A stretch of 46,301 bases of DNA, from assembly GCA_964515615.1 (NCBI GenBank), contig CAZEVI010000002.1:1-46301 (forward strand). Direction: 5' to 3'. Source of the stretch: an uncultured Candidatus Saccharibacteria bacterium. Its GTDB lineage: Bacteria > Patescibacteriota > UBA1384 > XYA2-FULL-43-10 > CAINNR01. Position numbers and translations under genes: made by a program. Positions within the stretch are counted from its first letter, which is position 1. Each line of letters opens with the position of its first letter. This document shows, in pieces, positions 3,915 through 41,185 of this stretch. The notes below the pieces were generated by a model. It saw nothing but the letters and a program-made list of their open reading frames with translations. It did no database searches and had not been told where the DNA came from.

Positions 3915-5116
3915 AATTTTTGAAATTCATCACCAATAACTGGCCGATAAAATTATTGGCAGTTTTCGCTGCACTAGGATTATGGGCTTATGCCGCTTCG
4001 GTCAAAATTTCCGTTGCCACATTTCCAAATGATATTCCAATAAAAGCGCTAAATCTAACGCCCGGTTTTGTGGCGATTTTCGATCAAGATACGGTAAAAA
4101 TCAGCATTTCAGCCGCGTCGGACACATGGAATCAACTATCAACTGATTCATTTTCCGCATACATAGATTTAAACGGTTATTCTGTCGGAACCTACCAAAT
4201 ACCGATCAACATCACCACTTCTGTATCCGGTGTTTTAATTATCTCTCGTGATCCGTTAAATGCGACGGTTACAATTGAGCCATCAATTTCCAAAGATGTT
4301 TCAGTAGTTGCTAAAATTTCCGGTGAAGCGGCAGAAAATATGATTGTCAGCAACGCCGTGTTTGATCCACAAACCGTTCGAGTAACCGGTCCGAAATCAG
4401 CAATTGATAGTTTAAGCCAAGCGACAGCAGAAATAATTTTATCCGGTGAAAGTAGTGATTTTAGTAATTCGGTTACCGTTTCTGCCTTAAACCAATCCGG
4501 CGGCGAGATACAAAATGTATATTTCGCTCCAATGAAGGTGATGGCCGAGGTAAAAATTGTTTCAGCCGGAAATGTTAAAAATCTTGGCATTTCAGTTGAC
4601 ACAAAGGGGTCTCCGGCCGATGGATTTTACATTTCCTCAATCTCAACAAATCCGGCGACAATTTCGGTTGTTGGCGCAGCTAATTCTGTTCGGAATTTAA
4701 ACACAATATCAACAGTTCCAATTGATATTACTAATTTGAGTCAAACCCTTTCTGGAACTTATGCTCTGATTTTTCCGCTTGGCGTTCAATCAAATGGCAC
4801 TAATAAAGTATCTGTAACTATCACCGTCAGTAATCAGACCATAAATCGAACACTTTCAATTCCGATAAAAACCCCAAATATTCCGAGTGGTTTGTCCGTC
4901 TCTTCAATTACACCGCCAACTGTTCTGACCACTGTTTCCGGCCCGATCAATACCATTAACAGTATCGGCATCAGCGATATTTCACTATCGATTGATCTTT
5001 CGACGGCTGTTTCCGGCAATCATGATCATAAAATTTCTTCCGACGATTTTACTCTGTCGGATAACATTAAATTAATCAATTTTACCCCATCTACTGTTAC
5101 TATTTCGTTAAAGTGA
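3911..5116 (+). CDS. cdaR: YbbR-domain regulator of CdaA (CdaR)
   Basis: N-terminal TM segment followed by repeated beta-rich YbbR-like modules; translationally coupled to cdaA. Confidence 0.8.
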   Translation: MKFLKFITNNWPIKLLAVFAALGLWAYAASVKISVATFPNDIPIKALNLTPGFVAIFDQDTVKISISAASDTWNQLSTDSFSAYIDLNGYSVGTYQIPINITTSVSGVLIISRDPLNATVTIEPSISKDVSVVAKISGEAAENMIVSNAVFDPQTVRVTGPKSAIDSLSQATAEIILSGESSDFSNSVTVSALNQSGGEIQNVYFAPMKVMAEVKIVSAGNVKNLGISVDTKGSPADGFYISSISTNPATISVVGAANSVRNLNTISTVPIDITNLSQTLSGTYALIFPLGVQSNGTNKVSVTITVSNQTINRTLSIPIKTPNIPSGLSVSSITPPTVLTTVSGPINTINSIGISDISLSIDLSTAVSGNHDHKISSDDFTLSDNIKLINFTPSTVTISLK

Positions 5117-33802: not shown

Positions 33803-34564
33803 ATGGATATTTTAACCAAAGAACAACTAATTGATTTCCGAATTTCCGGTAAAATTCTGGCAATAGCTCTTTCTGAAGTTCAAAACTACATCAAGCCGGG
33901 AATCACAACTATGTCTCTTGACGAAATTGCCGAAAGAAGTTTGCGTCGTCAAGGAGCGATTCCTTCTTTTAAAAACTATAAAACAGGTGATGCCCCGCGC
34001 TATCCGGCTGCTCTTTGTGTTTCGATTAATGACGAGCTGGTTCACGGAATTCCTTCGGGGGGGAAATTTTTAAAAAATGGTGATATTGTCTCTTTGGATT
34101 TAGGTGCTAATTATCAGGGAACTTTTACTGATATGGCAGCCACTTTCCCCGTTGGTAAAATTTCCGCCAGAGATAGGAGGTTAATTGATATTACTCGAAA
34201 TGTTTTGCATGAAGCAATAAAATTTTTGAAACCGGGGATGAAAACTGGAGACTTAGGAAATTTTATTGAAAGTTACGTTTCTAAAAACGGTTTAGCAGTC
34301 ATCCGCGATTTCGTTGGCCATGGTATAGGTTTAGCACCACATACTGATCCGCAAGTCCCAAATTTTGGCCAACAAAAGACTGGCGTTGCTCTTTGCGAAG
34401 GGATGGCAATTGCTATTGAACCGATGGTGGTAAAAGGTAATATTGATGTTAAAATTGATCGCGATGGCTGGACTGTTCGTATGGCTCACGGCCAACGCTC
34501 GGCCCATTTCGAACATACGGTTTTAATTGGTAAATCCGGAGCAAAGATTATAACAAAAATATAA
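33803..34564 (+). CDS. map: Methionine aminopeptidase type I
   Basis: Metal-ligand blocks (VSLDLGA, FTDMAAT, GHGIG, IEPM, FEHT). Confidence 0.95.
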   Translation: MDILTKEQLIDFRISGKILAIALSEVQNYIKPGITTMSLDEIAERSLRRQGAIPSFKNYKTGDAPRYPAALCVSINDELVHGIPSGGKFLKNGDIVSLDLGANYQGTFTDMAATFPVGKISARDRRLIDITRNVLHEAIKFLKPGMKTGDLGNFIESYVSKNGLAVIRDFVGHGIGLAPHTDPQVPNFGQQKTGVALCEGMAIAIEPMVVKGNIDVKIDRDGWTVRMAHGQRSAHFEHTVLIGKSGAKIITKI

Positions 34565-34601
34565 AATTAATATATTTTTCATCAAAAAATATTTAATATT
34601 T

Positions 34602-35030
34602 ATGCCAGAATCACAAACAGAAGTAATCGGTCAGATCGGCCCAGAACCAAATAAAACATTGGCCTTTTTGGAATCGGAACACAAAAAACTAACTCAACAA
34701 TATTCTAATAATAGGTTTTTGGCCAACGAAGTTGCCAAATTGTTGATGGAAGATGGTCTTGCTCCACATATTGAAATGGTCTATGAAGTGCGTGATGATC
34801 AAGTTGTATTATTTTTACCACAAATTTATGAAGGCAAAATGTCGCCTTGGCATGCACACTTCGTATGCTGTACCGAAAACCAAGCATTTGATCCGATTTT
34901 GGGTTATCCAATCAATAAAGAAAACTATACAAAAGAACTATTTGGCCAAGAGATTGAGATGAAGGTCAGTGTTCCGGCTGAAGATATGGACAAATATTCA
35001 GGGAATTTCGATCCTTCTGTTAAGCGATAA
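34602..35030 (+). CDS. Hypothetical protein, 142 aa
   Basis: Non-repetitive ORF (…SPWHAHFVCCTENQAFDPILG…); no SD seen; no family recognised. Confidence 0.5.
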   Translation: MPESQTEVIGQIGPEPNKTLAFLESEHKKLTQQYSNNRFLANEVAKLLMEDGLAPHIEMVYEVRDDQVVLFLPQIYEGKMSPWHAHFVCCTENQAFDPILGYPINKENYTKELFGQEIEMKVSVPAEDMDKYSGNFDPSVKR

Positions 35031-35063
35031 TATCAAAAACAATTTATTAAAATATTTTGGACT

Positions 35064-35087
35064 AAAAAACGCCGCTGATTTGTGGCG
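35064..35087 (-). terminator. Terminator of the minus-strand lipoprotein gene
   Basis: CGCCGC-TGATTT-GTGGCG (one G-U pair) with a minus-strand T-run (plus-strand A6 35064-35069). Confidence 0.45.
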
Positions 35088-35202
35088 CTAGGGTTAATTT
35101 TGTCAATAGAATCCCTAACACTTTGACGAGTTTATCGAATCAATGACGGCATTTAGATAATGTCTAAGGCTCGCCGAATCATTGTAGCTTAGTTTCCCAA
35201 GG

Positions 35203-35595
35203 CTAATTATTTCGAAAAAGAACATCATCTTTGTCATAAAAATTAATTAAACATCTCTGCGACTGAAACAATTGTTGATCAAAATATAACTCCGAGCGGC
35301 ATGCCCCATCCGGTATTAGCTTCTTCCCGTCTTCGAAACAAGTGATAACTAAAAGTCCTTTCTGAGATGGATTTTCGAAATATAATTGGAACAGTCCTTT
35401 TCGAAGCTCAAACCCATATTTGTCAATCCGAATTGTTGAGTTAAAAAAATGGAAAAGCCCATCTTTTTCAACAATGTATCCATGACTTTCCATTACCGAA
35501 ACAAGTGATTCTTGCAAATTATCTTCCGGAATATCGCAGCCAATTACCAATGAAATAAAAAATACAACGTAAATCACAACAAGAAGCTTTTTCAT
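35203..35595 (-). CDS. Putative lipoprotein, 130 aa
   Basis: MKKLLVVIYVVFFISLVIGC signal peptide with lipobox-like VIGC; SD AGGGAGA before ATG 35595 (track start 35625 less likely). Confidence 0.65.
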   Translation of the reverse strand: MKKLLVVIYVVFFISLVIGCDIPEDNLQESLVSVMESHGYIVEKDGLFHFFNSTIRIDKYGFELRKGLFQLYFENPSQKGLLVITCFEDGKKLIPDGACRSELYFDQQLFQSQRCLINFYDKDDVLFRNN

Positions 35596-35677
35596 GGCTT
35601 CTCCCTTTATGTGATCTTTTCTCATATAATATATATCATAAAAAAAATAAAAAAACCAAATGGTATATACTTACCGG

Positions 35678-35706
35678 TGTACTTATTTTGAATAATGTGA
35701 TATAAA
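35678..35706 (+). promoter_or_regulatory. Extended -10 promoter for the small Cys-rich ORF (TGnTATAAA)
   Basis: TG 35698-35699, TATAAA 35701-35706; weak -35 TGTACT 35678-35683. Confidence 0.35.
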
Positions 35707-35745
35707 ATAGATAGTAAAAAATCATTCCCATCAAGGAGGGGAAGC

Positions 35746-35928
35746 ATGAAAAAGACACTGTTGGGTTGTTTTTCCCACCCAACTATTGAACAAATCAGAA
35801 GATTCCAAATTAATAATTTACTGGTAAAATTCTTAAACTTTCGGATCTTTTTACACATGTGTTTCTGTTCCAAATGTATTCAAATTGCCGATGACATTTA
35901 TTACTATCAATCGTCTTGCGATGACTGA
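35746..35928 (+). CDS. Small Cys-rich protein, 60 aa
   Basis: Strong SD AAGGAGGG (35733-35740) 5 nt before the ATG; five Cys including CFCSKC; immediately followed by a strong terminator. Confidence 0.65.
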   Translation: MKKTLLGCFSHPTIEQIRRFQINNLLVKFLNFRIFLHMCFCSKCIQIADDIYYYQSSCDD

Positions 35929-35944
35929 TATTCTGACAATTTTT

Positions 35945-35968
35945 ACCCGCCACTTTTGGCGGGTTTTA
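35945..35968 (+). terminator. Rho-independent terminator of the small Cys-rich ORF
   Basis: ACCCGCC-ACTTTT-GGCGGGT followed by TTTT. Confidence 0.8.
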
Positions 35969-35972
35969 AATT

Positions 35973-35993
35973 AAAAAGCACCAGTTGTGGTGC
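35973..35993 (-). terminator. Rho-independent terminator of minus-strand gene 36006-36401
   Basis: GCACCA-GTTG-TGGTGC with a minus-strand T-run (plus-strand A5 35973-35977). Confidence 0.65.
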
Positions 35994-36005
35994 CCATAAA
36001 GTCTC

Positions 36006-36401
36006 TCAGTTCTCTCGCTTGCTAACTATTCTAACAGAACGAACCTCAAGCATTCGACTTAAAAGTCTGACCATACTGCCATTTGCGCCGATCCAAAATG
36101 GCTCATCTATTTTTGGAACTTCCAGGTGTGCCGAACCGTCCATTCCAATTTCTAATTTATTGCTGCCTAGCAAATTTTGAATAAAGTCAGTGAACCCAAG
36201 TTTTGATCTATGAACATACCAGCATTTATTTGTGCGCAAATTTGCGACCAGCATATATTCTTTTCGTTGATCTTGGTTCATGCTATCAACATCACTTAAT
36301 TTATTTGATATTTCCTGCTGACTGCATTTCCAAAACGAAGGCATGCCACATTCAGGATCGAAATATTTTTCAATGTCACCCCTAGTGCGAATTTTATTCA
36401 A
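36006..36401 (-). CDS. Hypothetical protein, 131 aa
   Basis: SD AAGGAGG (36410-36416) 8 nt before TTG start 36401; own terminator; no family recognised. Confidence 0.65.
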   Translation of the reverse strand: MNKIRTRGDIEKYFDPECGMPSFWKCSQQEISNKLSDVDSMNQDQRKEYMLVANLRTNKCWYVHRSKLGFTDFIQNLLGSNKLEIGMDGSAHLEVPKIDEPFWIGANGSMVRLLSRMLEVRSVRIVSKREN

Positions 36402-36713
36402 GACAAGTGCCTCCTTTCTCGATCATTGTCGCTTCTTTTCTTATAGCACAGTTTTAGATGTTAATCAATGAATTTTGGGCTTATAAACAAAATTTTGATC
36501 TGCATATTGGTGTTTTACTTATTGTAAATGACAAATTAAACACTCTAATTTTTGAACATCTTTTTATCAATCATCTCGTAGGTTTTCGCAAAACTAGGTT
36601 TGGCATTTAACTGGTCTTTTTTTTATTTATTCAATATAATATGATAGGTGAAATAATTGATTTTAACCATTTATTAAAAAAATGATCAAAAAAATTAAAA
36701 AGAGCAATGATCA

Positions 36714-37100
36714 ATGGCAAAAATCCTTTCAAAAGATATTTTTGAAATTACTTGTGATGCCGGCACTAAACTGCCTTTTGATAATTTGTATCATAATCTG
36801 AAAGAAAGGGGGATTTATCGCTGTATCGCTTGCAAATTATCGCTATTTTCCTCTGCCGATAAATTTGATTCTGGCACCGGTTGGCCAAGCTTTTCAAAAG
36901 CGATTATTGACGATCATATTAATATTAAAACTGACACAAGTCACGGTATGATCAGAACCGAAACAATTTGCGGCCGTTGTCAATCCCATTTGGGACATGT
37001 TTTCAACGACTGACCGACTCCAACCGGAAAAAGATTTTGCATGAATTCGGCTGCCCTAATTTTACAACCAAAAGGCAATTTAGATGATTTTTGTGATTAG
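36714..37100 (+). pseudogene. msrB: Methionine-R-sulfoxide reductase MsrB with in-frame TGA at 37011-37013
   Basis: CIAC...GTGWPSF...[14 protein letters not shown][TGA][15 protein letters not shown]. The TGA replaces the Gly of the conserved DGP, and the frame with the catalytic Cys stays open to TAG 37098-37100. Confidence 0.75.
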
Positions 37101-37225
37101 TGATATTTCTATTTGGATAAATTTTATCATTAACATATCATTTTCATTACAATATTTTTCGTCTCTAAATGCTAATTAGTGGTATTTTGCTATGATATAG
37201 TTGTAAATATTTAACAGGGAGAAAA

Positions 37226-37441
37226 ATGTCAAAAAGTAAAGGAATGCTTGGTGGGGGAGTTTATGGATTGGCCTTCGTTGGGGCTTTGGTCTATTTTATC
37301 CAACACGCGACTACATTGTGGATGGGAGTTTTAGGAATTCTAAAAGCCATTGTCTGGCCGGCAATGATAATTTACAAAGTTCTTGGTCTTTTAGGGCTTT
37401 TAAAATATTATTTTTTAGTACTAAATTTCTCAACTGTATAA
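37226..37441 (+). CDS. Small membrane protein, 71 aa, two predicted TM helices
   Basis: SD GGGAGA before the ATG; hydrophobic GLAFVGALVYFI and ILKAIVWPAMIIY segments; 3' end overlaps the AMMECR1 gene convergently. Confidence 0.55.
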   Translation: MSKSKGMLGGGVYGLAFVGALVYFIQHATTLWMGVLGILKAIVWPAMIIYKVLGLLGLLKYYFLVLNFSTV

Positions 37442-37965
37442 GTTTTTATTTTACAGTTATTTTTCCAATCGTAAAAATTAAGTCCGGCCTTATTGCAAAG
37501 TGCCGAGAGAAAATCCGTCGGATTGGCAAGATCCTGCCAAACTTGAGGTAGAAAAGTTGCGCTACGACTGTTTTTTTCGATAATCACTCCGGGCTTATTT
37601 TTTGATATAAATGACAGTAAATCCGATTCATCTTGATAATTTTGAATTTGTATTTTTCCTATAACTGATATTTCAATATCAACTTTTTCAAATTCTTCTG
37701 CTGTTAGCGGTAAAAACCGCGGATCGGAAAAAGCCGCCGAAAGAGCATTTTCAATTACATCTTGATAAAGCGGTTGGCAGGGTTTTAAGTGGCCAACACA
37801 ACCACGAAGTTTGCTATTAATCTCCAAAGTCACAAAAACGGCACCATGGTTTTTTAGTTCTAATGGAATTTTATTTGCATCGATTACAAATTTTTTGCCG
37901 GAAAACTTGGTTTTAATGGTTTCCCTCGCCAAACCGAGCAAAAAAAACCGATTATCTCGTTTCAT
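37408..37965 (-). CDS. AMMECR1-domain protein (AmmeMemoRadiSam protein A-like)
   Basis: LRGCVGH, DPRFLPL, ATFLPQVW, LCNKAGL. Confidence 0.88.
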   Translation of the reverse strand: MKRDNRFFLLGLARETIKTKFSGKKFVIDANKIPLELKNHGAVFVTLEINSKLRGCVGHLKPCQPLYQDVIENALSAAFSDPRFLPLTAEEFEKVDIEISVIGKIQIQNYQDESDLLSFISKNKPGVIIEKNSRSATFLPQVWQDLANPTDFLSALCNKAGLNFYDWKNNCKIKTYTVEKFSTKK

Positions 37966-37996
37966 AAAATATAATTAGTTACGCGGCTTTGGTGTT

Positions 37997-38542
37997 TTAA
38001 GCATTCCAAAGTCTTTCTTTAACATTTTCAGCAATGACACCAATTTGTTTTGGCGTCTTGACTTTGGTGGAATGGCCAATATAATTGGAAGCTTGAAGAA
38101 CAAGCTCATTGCATGATTTTAGAACTCCCATTTGATAAGGAGTAAGCCCGTCTGTTTGTGCTTTAAATTTTCTACAAATTTCTCTCCAATGCATAGGAAT
38201 ATCGGAGTTGTCTCGACGTGAATATTCAAAAAGTAAACCTTCATTCCCAATAAAATGCTGAATAGTAGCATTAAGTTGCTTTAGATCTTGGTCAGTTTGT
38301 TGTTCTTCAACTAGCTGTTCAAGTGTTTGGCCATTTTGAAGTTTTTGGAAAATCTCCTGACCGCGATGAAAAGTATCAGATAAAAATCTGTCGTGGAAGC
38401 CAATTTCATCCTCAACTTGAGAGTGTAATGAAGTTAAACCGAGAATAAATTGTTGAAAATCCGGATTGTTCAGAATTTCCGACTCTTGTGGCGTCAACAA
38501 AAAAGTATTGTTTGGCTCGGCCTCAAATTTATGTAAAACCAT
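37997..38542 (-). CDS. Hypothetical protein, 181 aa, inside the AmmeMemoRadiSam-type operon
   Basis: SD AGGAGG before the ATG; acidic, probably helical; no motif recognised. Confidence 0.7.
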   Translation of the reverse strand: MVLHKFEAEPNNTFLLTPQESEILNNPDFQQFILGLTSLHSQVEDEIGFHDRFLSDTFHRGQEIFQKLQNGQTLEQLVEEQQTDQDLKQLNATIQHFIGNEGLLFEYSRRDNSDIPMHWREICRKFKAQTDGLTPYQMGVLKSCNELVLQASNYIGHSTKVKTPKQIGVIAENVKERLWNA

Positions 38543-38567
38543 TTTTCCTCCTAAATTTTAATAATAT

Positions 38568-39173
38568 TTATATTAATTTAGCTACCAAATAACCGACGCC
38601 AAATGGAGCTTCGTACGAAAGGATTTTCGATTTGAGCTTGCTATTTTCGCCGAACAGAAGTCCGAAAGTAAAAGCAAATGATCGCATACCGCAATCAGCA
38701 GCAAAAGGGTATTTTTTGTCTAGCCTAAGAATTTCTTCGACATTTTTCCTCATTAGTAAGTCAGAAAACTCTTTGTCAAATTTCGGTCCATCGGGATGAA
38801 AACCATATGGGCCGTCGGGGGTTAAAACGTGTGATAAATCGCCAGAAGCAATAATAGCGAATGATTTCTTTTGGTCAAGTTTTTTGGCAAATTTCTCACC
38901 TTTCAAAAAATACGAATTAACTGAATCTTCTCCACAAAGAAATTGATGAATTTTGCCAGAAAAATTTTTAGCAATAAAAAATAGCGGCACGTTAAAACCC
39001 CAGTCGCGGTGTGGCGAGCTAATGATAATCTCATCAATATTTAGTTTTGCGAAATCTTCGCCGAGTTGATTTAGAGAACGTATGGTATTTTCGATTTGTT
39101 GATGATCACTGACAGTTCCGATATCTGGCAACAAAATCGGAGCATGTGGCGAGATTACGGCAAATTTAATCAT
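38568..39173 (-). CDS. LigB/Memo-fold (class III extradiol dioxygenase-like) protein, candidate AmmeMemoRadiSam protein B
   Basis: SPHAP, SSPH, GDLSH His motifs; C-terminal CG...APFGVGY. ATG 39173 lies 1 nt after the rSAM stop (track TTG 39185 also possible). Confidence 0.65.
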   Translation of the reverse strand: MIKFAVISPHAPILLPDIGTVSDHQQIENTIRSLNQLGEDFAKLNIDEIIISSPHRDWGFNVPLFFIAKNFSGKIHQFLCGEDSVNSYFLKGEKFAKKLDQKKSFAIIASGDLSHVLTPDGPYGFHPDGPKFDKEFSDLLMRKNVEEILRLDKKYPFAADCGMRSFAFTFGLLFGENSKLKSKILSYEAPFGVGYLVAKLI

Positions 39174-39174
39174 C

Positions 39175-40191
39175 TTAACTTTCAAATATTTTTAAATTGC
39201 ATTCCGGACAATGTCCAGCTTTTGACTGTTTTACTACATTATATCCTAATCGAGAAATAACTAAAGTTTTGCATTTAGGGCAATAAGTGTTGTCAAATTT
39301 GGGGTTGAAAAGATTGCCGAGATAAACGTATTTTAAGCCCCGATCAATTGCGATTTGACGGATTTTTTCTAGTGTTGCCATCCGTGTTTCCGGCAAATGC
39401 TTTAATTTCCATGAAATTTCAGGTGAAAATGCGCTAATATGCCAAGGAGTTTCCGGCCCAAGTGTAGTGAATATAAAATCCGCCAGCTTGGCAAGCATTT
39501 CTTCATTATCAGAACGAGTCGGGATGACCAATGTTGTAACTTCCAAATGAATGCCACGTTTAGAAAATTTTGTACAATTTTTTAAAACCGGAGCAATTTT
39601 AGCGCCGCAATTTTGCTGATAGAAAACATTATCAAAAGATTTTAGATCAATATTAATAGCATCAAGATAGGGAACAATTTTAGTAATTACATCGTTTGAC
39701 ATATAGCCGTTGGAGACCCAAACATTTTTTAAACCGGCTTTTTTGGCCAATCTCATTGTATCGAGTGCAAATTCAACCCAAATTGTTGGCTCGTTGTAAG
39801 TGTAAGCAATAGACAAACAGTTTTCGTTTTTTGCCCGACTTACAATCTCCGCCGGTAAAAGCGACAATCCAAAATCAACTGATTTTTGATCTGCTCCAGA
39901 AATCTGGGAGATATTGTAGTTTTGACAATTTTGGCAATGGAAATTACAACCCAAAGTTCCAACAGAAAACGCTACGCTTCCGGGGAGAAAATGATAAAAA
40001 GGTTTTTTTTCGATTGGGTCCACATTGGCGGCAACAACTTTTCCATATGTAAGCAATTGCAATTGACCATCAATGTTTTGTCTGACTCCGCAGATTCCAA
40101 TTTTGCCGACGATAATTTTGCAAAAATGATTGCACGCCTGGCACTGAACTTTTTTATTATCCAATTTTTTATAAAAAGCCGTTTTTTTCAC
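39175..40191 (-). CDS. Radical SAM enzyme, AmmeMemoRadiSam-type
   Basis: CNFHCQNC (CxxxCxxC); N-terminal CQACNHFC...C; C-terminal CPKC...CPEC. GTG 40191 has SD AAGGAGA (40198-40204), preferred over track start 40239. Confidence 0.85.
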   Translation of the reverse strand: MKKTAFYKKLDNKKVQCQACNHFCKIIVGKIGICGVRQNIDGQLQLLTYGKVVAANVDPIEKKPFYHFLPGSVAFSVGTLGCNFHCQNCQNYNISQISGADQKSVDFGLSLLPAEIVSRAKNENCLSIAYTYNEPTIWVEFALDTMRLAKKAGLKNVWVSNGYMSNDVITKIVPYLDAINIDLKSFDNVFYQQNCGAKIAPVLKNCTKFSKRGIHLEVTTLVIPTRSDNEEMLAKLADFIFTTLGPETPWHISAFSPEISWKLKHLPETRMATLEKIRQIAIDRGLKYVYLGNLFNPKFDNTYCPKCKTLVISRLGYNVVKQSKAGHCPECNLKIFES

Positions 40192-40210
40192 TTGTCGTCT
40201 CCTTGCAATC

Positions 40211-40239
40211 ATAATATAACTAAAATCGAATTCAATCAA
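40211..40239 (-). promoter_or_regulatory. Possible promoter of the rSAM operon (TTGATT-N17-TATTAT)
   Basis: Plus-strand AATCAA 40234-40239 and ATAATA 40211-40216; AT-rich context. Confidence 0.3.
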
Positions 40240-40318
40240 TCAATGTTAGAAAAGTGGAATCGACATTATCGAAAAGCTAATAATGTAGTACTGTAAAAGA
40301 TATTTTTGGCAAAAAGTG

Positions 40319-40347
40319 TTGACTATTTATTTTTTTTATGCTAGAAT
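40319..40347 (+). promoter_or_regulatory. Sigma70-like promoter for infA (TTGACT-N17-TAGAAT, TGn extended)
   Basis: TTGACT 40319-40324, TG 40339-40340, TAGAAT 40342-40347; 8 nt before ATG 40356. Confidence 0.5.
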
Positions 40348-40355
40348 TAAAGTCA

Positions 40356-40589
40356 ATGGTAGAACATGAAGTTATAAACGTTGAAGGCACGGTTGAAGAG
40401 TCTTTGCCAAATTCAACCTTTATTGTTAAATTAACGTCGGGACAGACAATTATTGCTTATCTCTCGGGTAGAATGAAGAAGAATTCGATTAAAGTTACCA
40501 CCGGAGATAAAGTTCAAGTTGAACTCACCCCATACGATTTAACCAAAGGCAGAATTACAGTCAGAGAAAATCCTTCCCGTCGGCAATAG
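40356..40589 (+). CDS. infA: Translation initiation factor IF-1
   Basis: [21 protein letters not shown]...[32 protein letters not shown] 40356 chosen because track ATG 40338 lies upstream of the -10 box. Confidence 0.9.
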
Positions 40590-40649
40590 TAAAAAGGATA
40601 TTTTCTGTTTTTTTGTTTGCTTTGTTTTTATTGGCATTAAATTTGTTTT

Positions 40650-40796
40650 ATGAAAGTTAGACCGTCAGTCAAAAAAATTTGCAGTCGATGCAAAATTGTC
40701 ATTCGAAAAAAGAAAAACAGTTCGACATCTGCCACTCTGCATCGAACAATTTTTTGTATCTGCTCCAACCCTAAACATAAACAACGACAAGGATAA
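40650..40796 (+). CDS. rpmJ: 50S ribosomal protein L36 (48 aa, with internal insertion)
   Basis: [17 protein letters not shown]...[11 protein letters not shown] translated by hand; below the ORF-track length cutoff. Confidence 0.9.
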
Positions 40797-40798
40797 TT

Positions 40799-41185
40799 AT
40801 GGTTAGAATTTCTGGGATTGACATTCCAAATGACAAACGAATTGAAATCGCTCTAACCTATGTTTTTGGTATTGGCTTAACTTCCAGCAAAAAAATTCTC
40901 TCGGCGACAAAAATTGATCCAAACATTCGCGCCAATAAACTTTCTGCCGATGATCTGGAAAAAATCCGCCAAATTATCAACAAAGATTATCAAATTGAGG
41001 GCGACTTAAAAACCGTTGTCTCACAAAATATCAAACGGCTGAAAGAGATCGGAACTTATCGAGGCACGCGACATTCGCGCGGTTTACCGGTTCGTGGTCA
41101 ACAAACCCAAACCAATGCCCGCACAAAACGCGGCAAAAAAGTAACTGTCGGTTCTGGTCGTAAAAAAGCTGCTGAAAAAACATAA
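40799..41185 (+). CDS. rpsM: 30S ribosomal protein S13
   Basis: MVRISGIDIPNDKR, YRGTRHSRGLPVRGQ. Confidence 0.96.
   Translation: MVRISGIDIPNDKRIEIALTYVFGIGLTSSKKILSATKIDPNIRANKLSADDLEKIRQIINKDYQIEGDLKTVVSQNIKRLKEIGTYRGTRHSRGLPVRGQQTQTNARTKRGKKVTVGSGRKKAAEKT

Follow-up and report, generated by a model that had tools for sequence, protein, structure and literature searches.

Compact bacterial operons of familiar enzymes may carry an orphan gene that is either a new component of the encoded system or a passenger, and this question is raised by a four-gene locus of an uncultured Candidatus Saccharibacteria bacterium. The locus lies at 37408-40239 of the window (the whole stretch of DNA analysed, 46,301 nucleotides), where four genes follow one another on the minus strand in the order radical SAM (rSAM), LigB-like, orf181 and AMMECR1. 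The original prediction read them as an AmmeMemoRadiSam-type operon in which the 181-aa product of orf181 would be a lineage-specific fourth component. Conservation of AMMECR1 and Memo extends from bacteria to humans, and both are tied to human disease; to our knowledge, a biochemical function has been established for neither protein, and the same holds for the substrate of AmmeMemoRadiSam. Burroughs and colleagues are said to have suggested, in a 2019 JBC paper, nucleotide-base or isoprenoid modification for Memo-AMMECR1 systems. No functional study of a prokaryotic AMMECR1/Memo/rSAM system was found in the literature searched.

The four genes and the three-gene core

The features of the locus are as follows.

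40192..40337, either strand: divergent intergenic region between rSAM and infA, 146 nt, with promoter-like hexamers on both strands
39175..40191, minus strand: predicted radical SAM enzyme of the AMMECR1/Memo/rSAM system (TIGR04337, PF04055)
38568-39185, minus strand: ORF of the LigB-like gene, with the ATG at 39173
38568..39173, minus strand: compact LigB/Memo-superfamily protein, 201 aa, predicted class III extradiol dioxygenase fold (PF02900, AF2 and Foldseek)
37966..38567, minus strand: 602-nt segment from the LigB-like stop to the AMMECR1 start, made up of orf181 and spacers of 25 nt and 31 nt
38547..38552, minus strand: AGGAGG, the Shine-Dalgarno sequence that precedes the orf181 ATG by 4 nt
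37997..38542, minus strand: orf181, orphan, 181 aa, acidic, predicted all-helical (ORF, codon usage)
37408..37965, minus strand: AMMECR1-family protein (AmmeMemoRadiSam system protein A), 185 aa (TIGR04335, PF01871)

The co-directional arrangement with tight junctions was recovered as originally described, with every ORF in its place, and the rSAM stop codon (TAA, 39177-39175) is followed by a single G and then by the LigB-like ATG (39173-39171), which is the 1-nt separation noted earlier. The motifs reported earlier can likewise all be read in the translations (CNFHCQNC, CQACNHFC, CPKC...CPEC, SPHAP, SSPH, GDLSH, FGVGY, LRGCVGH, DPRF, ATFLPQVW, and LCNKAGL).

The rSAM protein scores 332 bits on TIGR04337 (cutoff 220), where residues 20-351 of the maximal ORF cover profile positions 1-329 of 349, and 63.6 bits on PF04055 (cutoff 29.5), with CNFHCQNC as the CxxxCxxC motif. 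Its scores as a glycyl-radical enzyme activase all fall below the cutoffs for PflA (53.7 bits, cutoff 231.75), YjjW (60, cutoff 250.2) and NrdG2 (38.4, cutoff 131.15), and a closer kinship with PflA/NrdG-type activases, which would have spoken against the assignment, was thus not found (332 bits versus 54-60 bits for PflA/YjjW). The maximal ORF (39175-40239, 354 aa) opens with TTG 40239, which is an unlikely start; the most likely one, judged from the sequence, is GTG 40191, which has AAGGAG 7 nt upstream and gives a protein of 338 aa, the length called in two related loci (L008 and L009), and the alternative is ATG 40212, which gives 345 aa as called on L010. The last gene of the cluster was correctly predicted to encode an AMMECR1-family protein, with 194.6 bits on TIGR04335 (cutoff 99; profile positions 3-175 of 175) and 153.8 bits on PF01871.

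In NCBIfam, AmmeMemoRadiSam consists of protein A (TIGR04335), protein B (TIGR04336) and a radical SAM protein (TIGR04337), and Memo-AMMECR1 systems were treated by Burroughs et al. (2019, as cited in PMC7159879). The predicted AmmeMemoRadiSam type was borne out, since the rSAM (332 bits) and AMMECR1 (195 bits) proteins of the window both exceed the curated cutoffs; in addition, the three core genes are clustered, co-directional and tightly spaced, and the middle enzyme comes from the same LigB/Memo (PCAD-Memo) superfamily. By sequence, the core is an AMMECR1/Memo-like/rSAM trio of a kind common in CPR bacteria (Patescibacteria). It differs from AmmeMemoRadiSam in that its B protein is a minimised LigB-type protein of 201 aa that stays below TIGR04336, and in that an orphan gene, orf181, separates B from A. 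The same three domains occur in LigB/Memo-AMMECR1 fusions of Firmicutes (L072, 469 aa, followed by an rSAM gene), where the N-terminal domain of L072 is 33-34% identical to the LigB-like protein; in these fusions, however, B and A are joined and the order is B-A-rSAM, whereas the window has separate genes in the order rSAM-B-(orf181)-A. From family knowledge, the rSAM enzyme would cleave SAM reductively, and the resulting 5'-deoxyadenosyl radical would take a hydrogen from the substrate, while AMMECR1 (through the conserved cysteine of LRGCVGH) and the His/His/Asp/His-Cys/Glu metal site of the LigB-like protein may serve binding and then a redox or hydrolytic step.

A LigB-type protein in the place of Memo

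The LigB-like protein scores 69.3 bits on PF02900 (cutoff 26.3), with no match at E <= 0.1 on either TIGR04336 (cutoff 26) or PF01875 (Memo). Among its homologues, P0003 likewise has no match on TIGR04336 and P0052 reaches 17.6 bits, and two more distant ones, given as 38-44% identical to it, exceed the cutoff (L063 with 28.6 bits and the L072 fusion with 31.7 bits); the protein is therefore regarded as a divergent peripheral relative rather than a scored member of that family. Weak precomputed PF01875 matches are listed for some of its homologues. The AF2 model (pLDDT 95) has TK2203 of Thermococcus kodakarensis (5hee) as its best Foldseek match (TM 0.79), with TM values of 0.76-0.80 to 5hee, 8iq8, 7txy and 3vsh, and Memo (TM 0.61-0.65) falls below the LigB-type enzymes. 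TK2203, deposited in the PDB as 'Putative uncharacterized protein, TK2203 protein' of the LigB family, is also the best sequence match (E 1.2e-7, family profile), and both proteins have a GPYG(F/Y) segment after the SxDxxH motif; TK2203 is nonetheless longer (262 aa, about 60 residues more), and the identity in the structural alignment is about 15%. The family includes at least 4,881 protein clusters of about 200 aa, here mostly from CPR bacteria, in which H10, H55, D57, D112, H115 and C161 are invariant and E188 is near-invariant. The gene product is thus LigB-type by HMM and, in its model, by fold, with a predicted enzyme role, and it stands in place of the Memo 'B' protein; of the earlier description as a LigB/Memo-like protein of about 200 aa, the short LigB/Memo-superfamily protein stands and the Memo type does not.

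Genomic setting

The cluster had been placed between map and infA, and the infA side of this claim is accurate, with infA diverging from rSAM across the 146-nt region, whose promoter-like hexamers on each strand are consensus matches only. The map gene, however, ends at 34564 and does not adjoin the cluster; about 2.8 kb lies between them, with three unannotated ORFs, msrB with an in-frame TGA and a small membrane ORF. Genetic code 25 was ruled out as an explanation of the msrB TGA because TGA is the stop codon of five other genes in the window. Slightly lower GC (0.337-0.346) and further orphan ORFs characterize the 35-38 kb region. No Rfam match that would point to a hidden RNA gene was found in 34500-40800. 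In none of 91 related loci does the cluster lie in a ribosomal cluster or have infA, map, rpsM or adk within 4-5 kb (0/91 in both cases), and the translation-linked role that had been proposed from the ribosomal setting is thus not supported.

Evidence that orf181 is coding

Several lines of sequence evidence indicate that orf181 is a real coding ORF. A stop-free run of at least 181 codons arose in 0 of 5,000 shuffles of the 602-nt segment (maximum 148), the codon log-likelihood is higher in frame 0 (-3.90) than off-frame (-4.33 and -4.53), and GC by codon position follows the order GC1 > GC2 > GC3 of the host genes, from which its codon usage and GC content are indistinguishable. Its AGGAGG is one of two full AGGAGG sites upstream of the 42 window genes examined, and the ORF is unbroken in seven other population contigs. 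The earlier account of an acidic protein with a Shine-Dalgarno sequence and no recognised motif was accurate (pI 5.3, no family match).

Relatives and structure of orf181

Apart from its own 99%-identical cluster, no homologue of orf181 was found in a word-indexed search of 5.8 billion protein clusters, and a full HMMER scan of 1.84 billion representatives returned nothing beyond the same population cluster. Similarly, no match was obtained in Pfam, NCBIfam, PHROGs or PADLOC, among PDB sequences, in the viral sets (IMG/VR, and GenBank phages by tblastn), in the 91 related loci (tblastn and phmmer --max) or elsewhere in the window. A phmmer match to a eukaryotic ankyrin-repeat protein (P0122, summed E 3.5e-5) was set aside as a product of repeat inflation, its single stretches scoring 21-27 bits with 31% identity over 42 residues, and Pfam Ank gave no match. 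A decayed duplicate of the LigB-like gene (hhalign probability 0.5%) was also discarded. The single-sequence AF2 model has eight helices at pLDDT 50, and for this low-confidence model the best Foldseek match has E 0.45 and TM 0.35, with nothing below E 0.4. No glycyl-radical-type or peptide-substrate motif was seen on reading the sequence. To judge by these searches, orf181 occurs nowhere beyond its own species-level lineage.

The LigB-AMMECR1 junction in relatives

The ten nearest relatives sampled (L003-L007, L013-L015, L093 and L094), whose LigB-like proteins are 59–64% identical to that of the window, all have a contiguous rSAM-LigB-AMMECR1 trio, and none has a gene at the LigB-AMMECR1 junction. 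The distance from the LigB-like stop to the AMMECR1 start is 5-48 nt in nine of them, including eight with 5-15 nt, and the remaining junction (L094) is a non-coding, hairpin-rich, MITE-like stretch of 134 nt. Synteny of the 181-aa gene with AMMECR1/Memo genes, on which the idea of a fourth component had been staked, was thus found in no related genome. Wider gaps of 320-2,600 nt occur in 24 of 54 related loci in which both genes were detected, and in more distant CPR lineages the sequences place varied, unrelated cargo at the same junction, including a PP1-like phosphatase, RlmN, TruB, GlnA and, in L097, a ParE/HigB-like toxin with an AP endonuclease; the junction is accordingly considered insertion-prone. 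The interval also holds A2, a conserved unannotated family of about 100 aa (at least 6,000 clusters), in other CPR lineages, where expanded clusters of the form rSAM-LigB-[cargo]-A2-[cargo]-AMMECR1 (L019-L045, L095-L098) resemble the window in carrying extra genes, a small unannotated protein among them, in the same interval. These clusters differ in that A2 is absent from the window and unrelated to orf181 (hhalign probability 0.1%), and their AMMECR1 proteins are 24-31% identical to that of the window. An inositol-1-phosphate synthase gene is a repeated neighbour of these clusters in other CPR lineages.

Variation within the population

Eight population sequences contain seven SNP sites in the 546 nt of orf181 (five nonsynonymous and two synonymous), with no frameshift or stop, and six in the 2,181 nt of the three core genes. 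The SNP density of orf181 is therefore 4.7-fold that of its neighbours (Fisher p = 0.007, small counts), and this higher density, together with a pN/pS of about 0.65, is counted as relaxed constraint, with few SNPs to judge from.

Passenger or component

With a probability of roughly 70%, the locus is a three-gene CPR rSAM/LigB-like/AMMECR1 operon with a lineage-restricted insert, and orf181 is a passenger. The 602-nt segment would have been gained at the LigB-AMMECR1 junction by a single species-level lineage, and genomes labelled Moranbacteria are among the nearest relatives sampled for it. The gene would be transcribed with the operon and translated, and would be a passenger, either young or quick to evolve, that the pathway could do without even if it had an accessory role, and that has no catalytic or substrate part in it. 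It evolves fast and has no relatives anywhere in the searches, and it is therefore probably a passenger rather than a new system component. Against this reading, the strong ribosome-binding site, tight spacing and intact ORF would also fit a functional operon member; moreover, A2 in other CPR lineages shows that a genuine accessory can sit in this interval, the SNP counts are small and the sampled genomes include none between about 65% and 99% LigB identity.

The lineage-specific fourth component originally proposed, be it a substrate, scaffold, adaptor or regulator, is an unlikely reading of orf181. It accords with the co-directional position inside the operon between short spacers, with a ribosome-binding site that is the strongest of the four genes, with the finding of no terminator-like site in either intergenic junction and with the intactness of the gene in every population contig. 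In other CPR clades, A2 shows a consistent linkage to this interval, and the fusion of the LigB-like and AMMECR1 domains in Firmicutes would, on this argument, put anything between them at the heart of the system. A component of the system is nevertheless hard to reconcile with the missing homologues, with ten nearest relatives that keep the core trio and leave the slot without a gene, with the lack of kinship to A2 and of a suitable motif, with the raised SNP density and the 5:2 ratio of nonsynonymous to synonymous changes, and with cargo that elsewhere at the junction consists mostly of unrelated housekeeping or toxin genes. Somewhat less probable still is a genuine partner that evolves rapidly, as one among several small, non-homologous proteins (A2 included) that CPR bacteria would place in this interval to adapt, regulate or deliver the substrate. 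It is improbable that orf181 came from a mobile element or phage, be it as cargo or as a remnant, with an anti-defence or addiction-type gene as one example: the MITE-like insert of L094 and the toxin of L097 attest to an insertion-prone junction, orf181, in contrast to its neighbours, is equipped with a ribosome-binding site of its own, and the lower GC and orphan ORFs of the 35-38 kb region point the same way, but the phage and defence sets gave no match, no terminal direct or inverted repeats of note flank the segment at 37966..38567, no integrase or transposase lies near orf181, and its codon usage and GC match those of host genes. Most improbable of all is a non-functional, decaying or never-translated ORF, which the lack of homologues, the low model confidence, the pN/pS and the raised polymorphism would suit; a 181-codon open frame in 36% GC DNA that no shuffle reproduced, coding-type codon bias, an AGGAGG at proper spacing and eight sequences kept open despite seven SNPs all speak against it.

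Had a minimal CPR genome contained a conserved additional partner, it might have hinted at the AMMECR1/Memo substrate. Since orf181 is not conserved, the locus is another compact CPR example of the system and offers no way into its function. A more useful lead emerges from the census: the A2 family of about 100 aa and the inositol-1-phosphate synthase gene, both repeatedly associated with such clusters across other CPR lineages.

Organization of the operon and its three core proteins

The operon and its surroundings in the window comprise the following features.

Features of the window between adk and rpsM, in window order
33089: adk
33803–34564: map
34602–36401: three unannotated ORFs (142, 140 and 131 aa)
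36714–37100, plus strand: msrB, with an in-frame TGA at 37011–37013
37226–37441, plus strand: hydrophobic 71-aa ORF (small membrane ORF), converging on AMMECR1 with 3′ ends overlapping by 34 nt (37408–37441)
37408–40239, minus strand: operon of rSAM, gene 2, orf181 and AMMECR1
40338: infA, followed by rpsM

The four co-directional minus-strand ORFs are present exactly as originally predicted, with all quoted motifs found in the translations, the rSAM stop (TAA, 39177–39175) one base from the ATG of gene 2 (39173–39171), and AGGAGG preceding the ATG of orf181 by 4 nt. The gene 2–orf181 and orf181–AMMECR1 spacers (25 and 31 nt) hold no terminator-like sites, two such sites within the rSAM and LigB-like coding sequences are no more numerous than in shuffles, and co-transcription is plausible. 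No Rfam family was found in the region around the operon. The rSAM start is probably GTG 40191, 7 nt after AAGGAG, giving the 338-aa protein that gene callers also report on the identical contigs L008 and L009; ATG 40212, the start of the 345-aa call on L010, is an alternative, and TTG 40239, the maximal-ORF start, is unlikely.

The rSAM protein scores 332 bits on TIGR04337, the AmmeMemoRadiSam radical SAM enzyme model (cutoff 220), against just 54–60 bits on PflA/YjjW-type activase models (cutoffs 230–250), and it is therefore of the AmmeMemoRadiSam type; the better activase score that would have counted against the original prediction is not seen. The last gene is likewise confirmed as AMMECR1 (TIGR04335, 194.6 bits, cutoff 99; PF01871, 153.8 bits). 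On the CPR contig L097 (1–1670), the called product of the cluster's rSAM gene is no shorter than 822 aa and matches both intein-splicing (PF14890) and LAGLIDADG models; it is an intein-bearing member of this family.

Gene 2 matches Pfam LigB (PF02900) at 69 bits and neither the Memo (PF01875) nor the TIGR04336 profile. Its AlphaFold2 model, built from a 29-sequence alignment, is confident (pLDDT 95) and lies closest to LigB-family TK2203 (5hee; TM 0.79), followed by LigB-type extradiol dioxygenases, with Memo lower (TM 0.61–0.65). The family is large (at least 4,881 clusters), with aligned members of about 200–212 aa in which H10, H55, D57, D112, H115 and C161 are invariant and E188 nearly so; CPR bacteria account for most of the members seen here that are named or lie on long contigs, and some bear the NCBI name 'class III extradiol dioxygenase subunit B-like domain-containing protein'. 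Since gene 2 lacks a TIGR04336 match and distant homologues just pass its cutoff of 26 (28.6 bits in Trichococcus locus L063; 31.7 bits in Firmicutes locus L072), gene 2 is not a scored member but a minimised relative on the periphery of the system's 'B' proteins. In L072 (3977–5386), unlike the window, a single 469-aa protein joins the LigB/Memo-like domain to AMMECR1 (TIGR04335, 132 bits), and the rSAM gene follows; such fusions also occur in L073, L079, L080 and L083 and tie together, in Rosetta-stone fashion, the two proteins that orf181 parts in the window. In Trichococcus patagoniensis (L063:3094–5888), metK (SAM synthetase), and not AMMECR1, comes immediately after the rSAM and LigB-like genes.

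Genomic setting

The original prediction took the position between map and infA as a hint of a translation-linked role, which the related loci do not bear out: infA, map, rpsM or adk occurs within 4–5 kb of the cluster in none of 91, where the neighbors include AbiEii, Fic, MazE and M23 peptidase genes. The ribosomal-supercluster position is thus peculiar to this lineage and is no argument for such a role. The 142-, 140- and 131-aa ORFs, where GC dips slightly (0.337–0.346), have no match in Pfam, PHROG or PADLOC. They and the operon make up a non-ribosomal block of roughly 5.7 kb between map and infA that none of the related loci shows.

The msrB TGA sits exactly at the MsrB consensus Gly (GHVFND[TGA]PTPTGKRFCMNS...), and the frame runs on past it, including the catalytic RFCMNS cysteine, to a stop at 37098–37100; the gene is called at 99 aa on L008 and L009 too. 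Genetic code 25 is excluded because TGA is the normal stop in five other window genes, and the codon is either a read-through site or a nonsense mutation that makes msrB a pseudogene. The hydrophobic ORF is called as 58 aa on identical contigs, and a 37-aa stretch of it has a 57%-identical match near the cluster in related locus L066.

orf181 is a real gene without detectable relatives

Shuffling the 602-nt segment 5,000 times never produced a 181-codon open frame (longest, 148), codon usage is host-like in frame 0 (−3.90 vs. −4.33 and −4.53 off-frame), GC1 > GC2 > GC3 as in host genes, and the frame is intact in seven other contigs from the same population; orf181 is a real gene. Across eight sequences of this population, 7 of its 546 nt vary (5 nonsynonymous, 2 synonymous; pN/pS about 0.65), against 6 of 2,181 nt in the three core genes together, a 4.7-fold higher density (Fisher p = 0.007). 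The counts are small but suggest that orf181 is less constrained than its neighbors.

No match to orf181 was found in Pfam, NCBIfam, PHROGs, PADLOC, PDB, IMG/VR, GenBank phages or the 4,255 stop-to-stop ORFs that the 91 related loci contain. A search of 5.8 billion clusters returned just its own cluster (99% identical), and scanning 1.84 billion representatives exhaustively with HMMER yielded one further hit, to a eukaryotic ankyrin-repeat protein, rejected because about 17 repeats of 21–27 bits each inflate its E-value. The single-sequence AF2 model is all-helical and of low confidence (pLDDT 50), and its Foldseek matches are meaningless.

The LigB/AMMECR1 junction in related genomes

All ten nearest relatives sampled (L003–L007, L013–L015, L093 and L094; LigB-like proteins 59–64% identical), which include genomes labelled Candidatus Moranbacteria (P0022 in L007; L014), carry rSAM–LigB–AMMECR1, and none has a gene at the LigB/AMMECR1 junction; sampled genomes with LigB identity between about 65% and 99% were none. 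The spacer is AT-rich and 5–48 nt long in nine (5–15 nt in eight), and L094 (1532–1665; LigB-like 64% identical) has, at the very junction that holds orf181 in the window, a non-coding insert of 134 nt that is rich in GC and in hairpins, making this a recurrent insertion site. In more distant CPR lineages (LigB 48–58% identical, AMMECR1 merely 24–31%), the gap is 320–2,600 nt in 24 of 54 loci with both genes detected, and its cargo is heterogeneous, including PP1-like metallophosphatase, RlmN, TruB, glutamine synthetase, methyltransferases, membrane proteins and, in L097, a ParE/HigB-like toxin with an AP endonuclease. The junction is insertion-tolerant across CPR, and its occupancy is therefore no evidence of partnership.

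A recurrent unannotated family of about 100 aa (A2; at least 6,000 clusters; motifs YPRFHLY, NLHLDQKRPxY, AHAGEYEG and EAERIK), without matches in Pfam, NCBIfam or PDB, lies in the LigB (or rSAM–LigB)-to-AMMECR1 interval in nine census loci and in all four independently chosen long contigs, many hosts being Paceibacteria/Nealsonbacteria-type genomes.

A2 and myo-inositol-1-phosphate synthase genes in related loci
A2, census loci: L019:4618–4917; L030:4650–4964; L034:2273–2569; L038:6026–6400; L039:5812–6105; L045:4708–5013; L028:5378–5683; L021:6568–6867; L081:4764–5054
A2, long contigs: L095–L098 at 4001–4330
Synthase: L095 from about 8301 (locus end); L096 from about 7879; L097 from about 7249; L098:5040–6134

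A2 is a candidate for a real accessory of these systems and demonstrates that this interval can accommodate a true one. It is absent from the window, and orf181 is ruled out as a relative (hhalign probability 0.1%). A myo-inositol-1-phosphate synthase gene (PF01658) adjoins the expanded rSAM–LigB–...–AMMECR1 cluster in each of L095–L098, the four loci inspected, which hints at a link with inositol-phosphate or lipid head-group metabolism. L095 additionally carries a CDP-alcohol phosphatidyltransferase.

Interpretation

The core trio is already known, its arrangement recurring in thousands of metagenomic contigs, and orf181 is the part assignable to no known family. On the best reading (probability about 0.7), the known three-gene system is present here in the form common among CPR, and a junction prone to insertions has received a lineage-restricted orphan, orf181, which is most likely expressed with the operon and dispensable for the pathway. 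The original prediction had made orf181 a lineage-specific fourth component, to be recognized by synteny in related genomes; judged in that way, orf181 does not qualify as a conserved partner, given the gene-free junctions of the ten nearest relatives and the lack of any homologue found, and although A2 occupies the same interval, a true fourth component is unlikely. Mobile-element or phage cargo is more doubtful still: the ParE/HigB-like toxin at this junction in L097 speaks for it, and the lack of terminal repeats flanking the insert and of any phage match speaks against it. A non-functional ORF, favored by the elevated variation and opposed by the shuffles and the host-like codon usage, is the least probable of these.

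By analogy with the families, the radical SAM enzyme would start the reaction by hydrogen abstraction, and AMMECR1 and the LigB-like metal site would next act on its substrate. Burroughs and colleagues reportedly proposed nucleotide-base or isoprenoid modification for these systems. That work (Burroughs et al., 2019) is cited in PMC7159879. Better leads than orf181 to AMMECR1/Memo function are A2, the inositol-1-phosphate synthase gene of L095–L098 and the Firmicutes LigB–AMMECR1 fusion.
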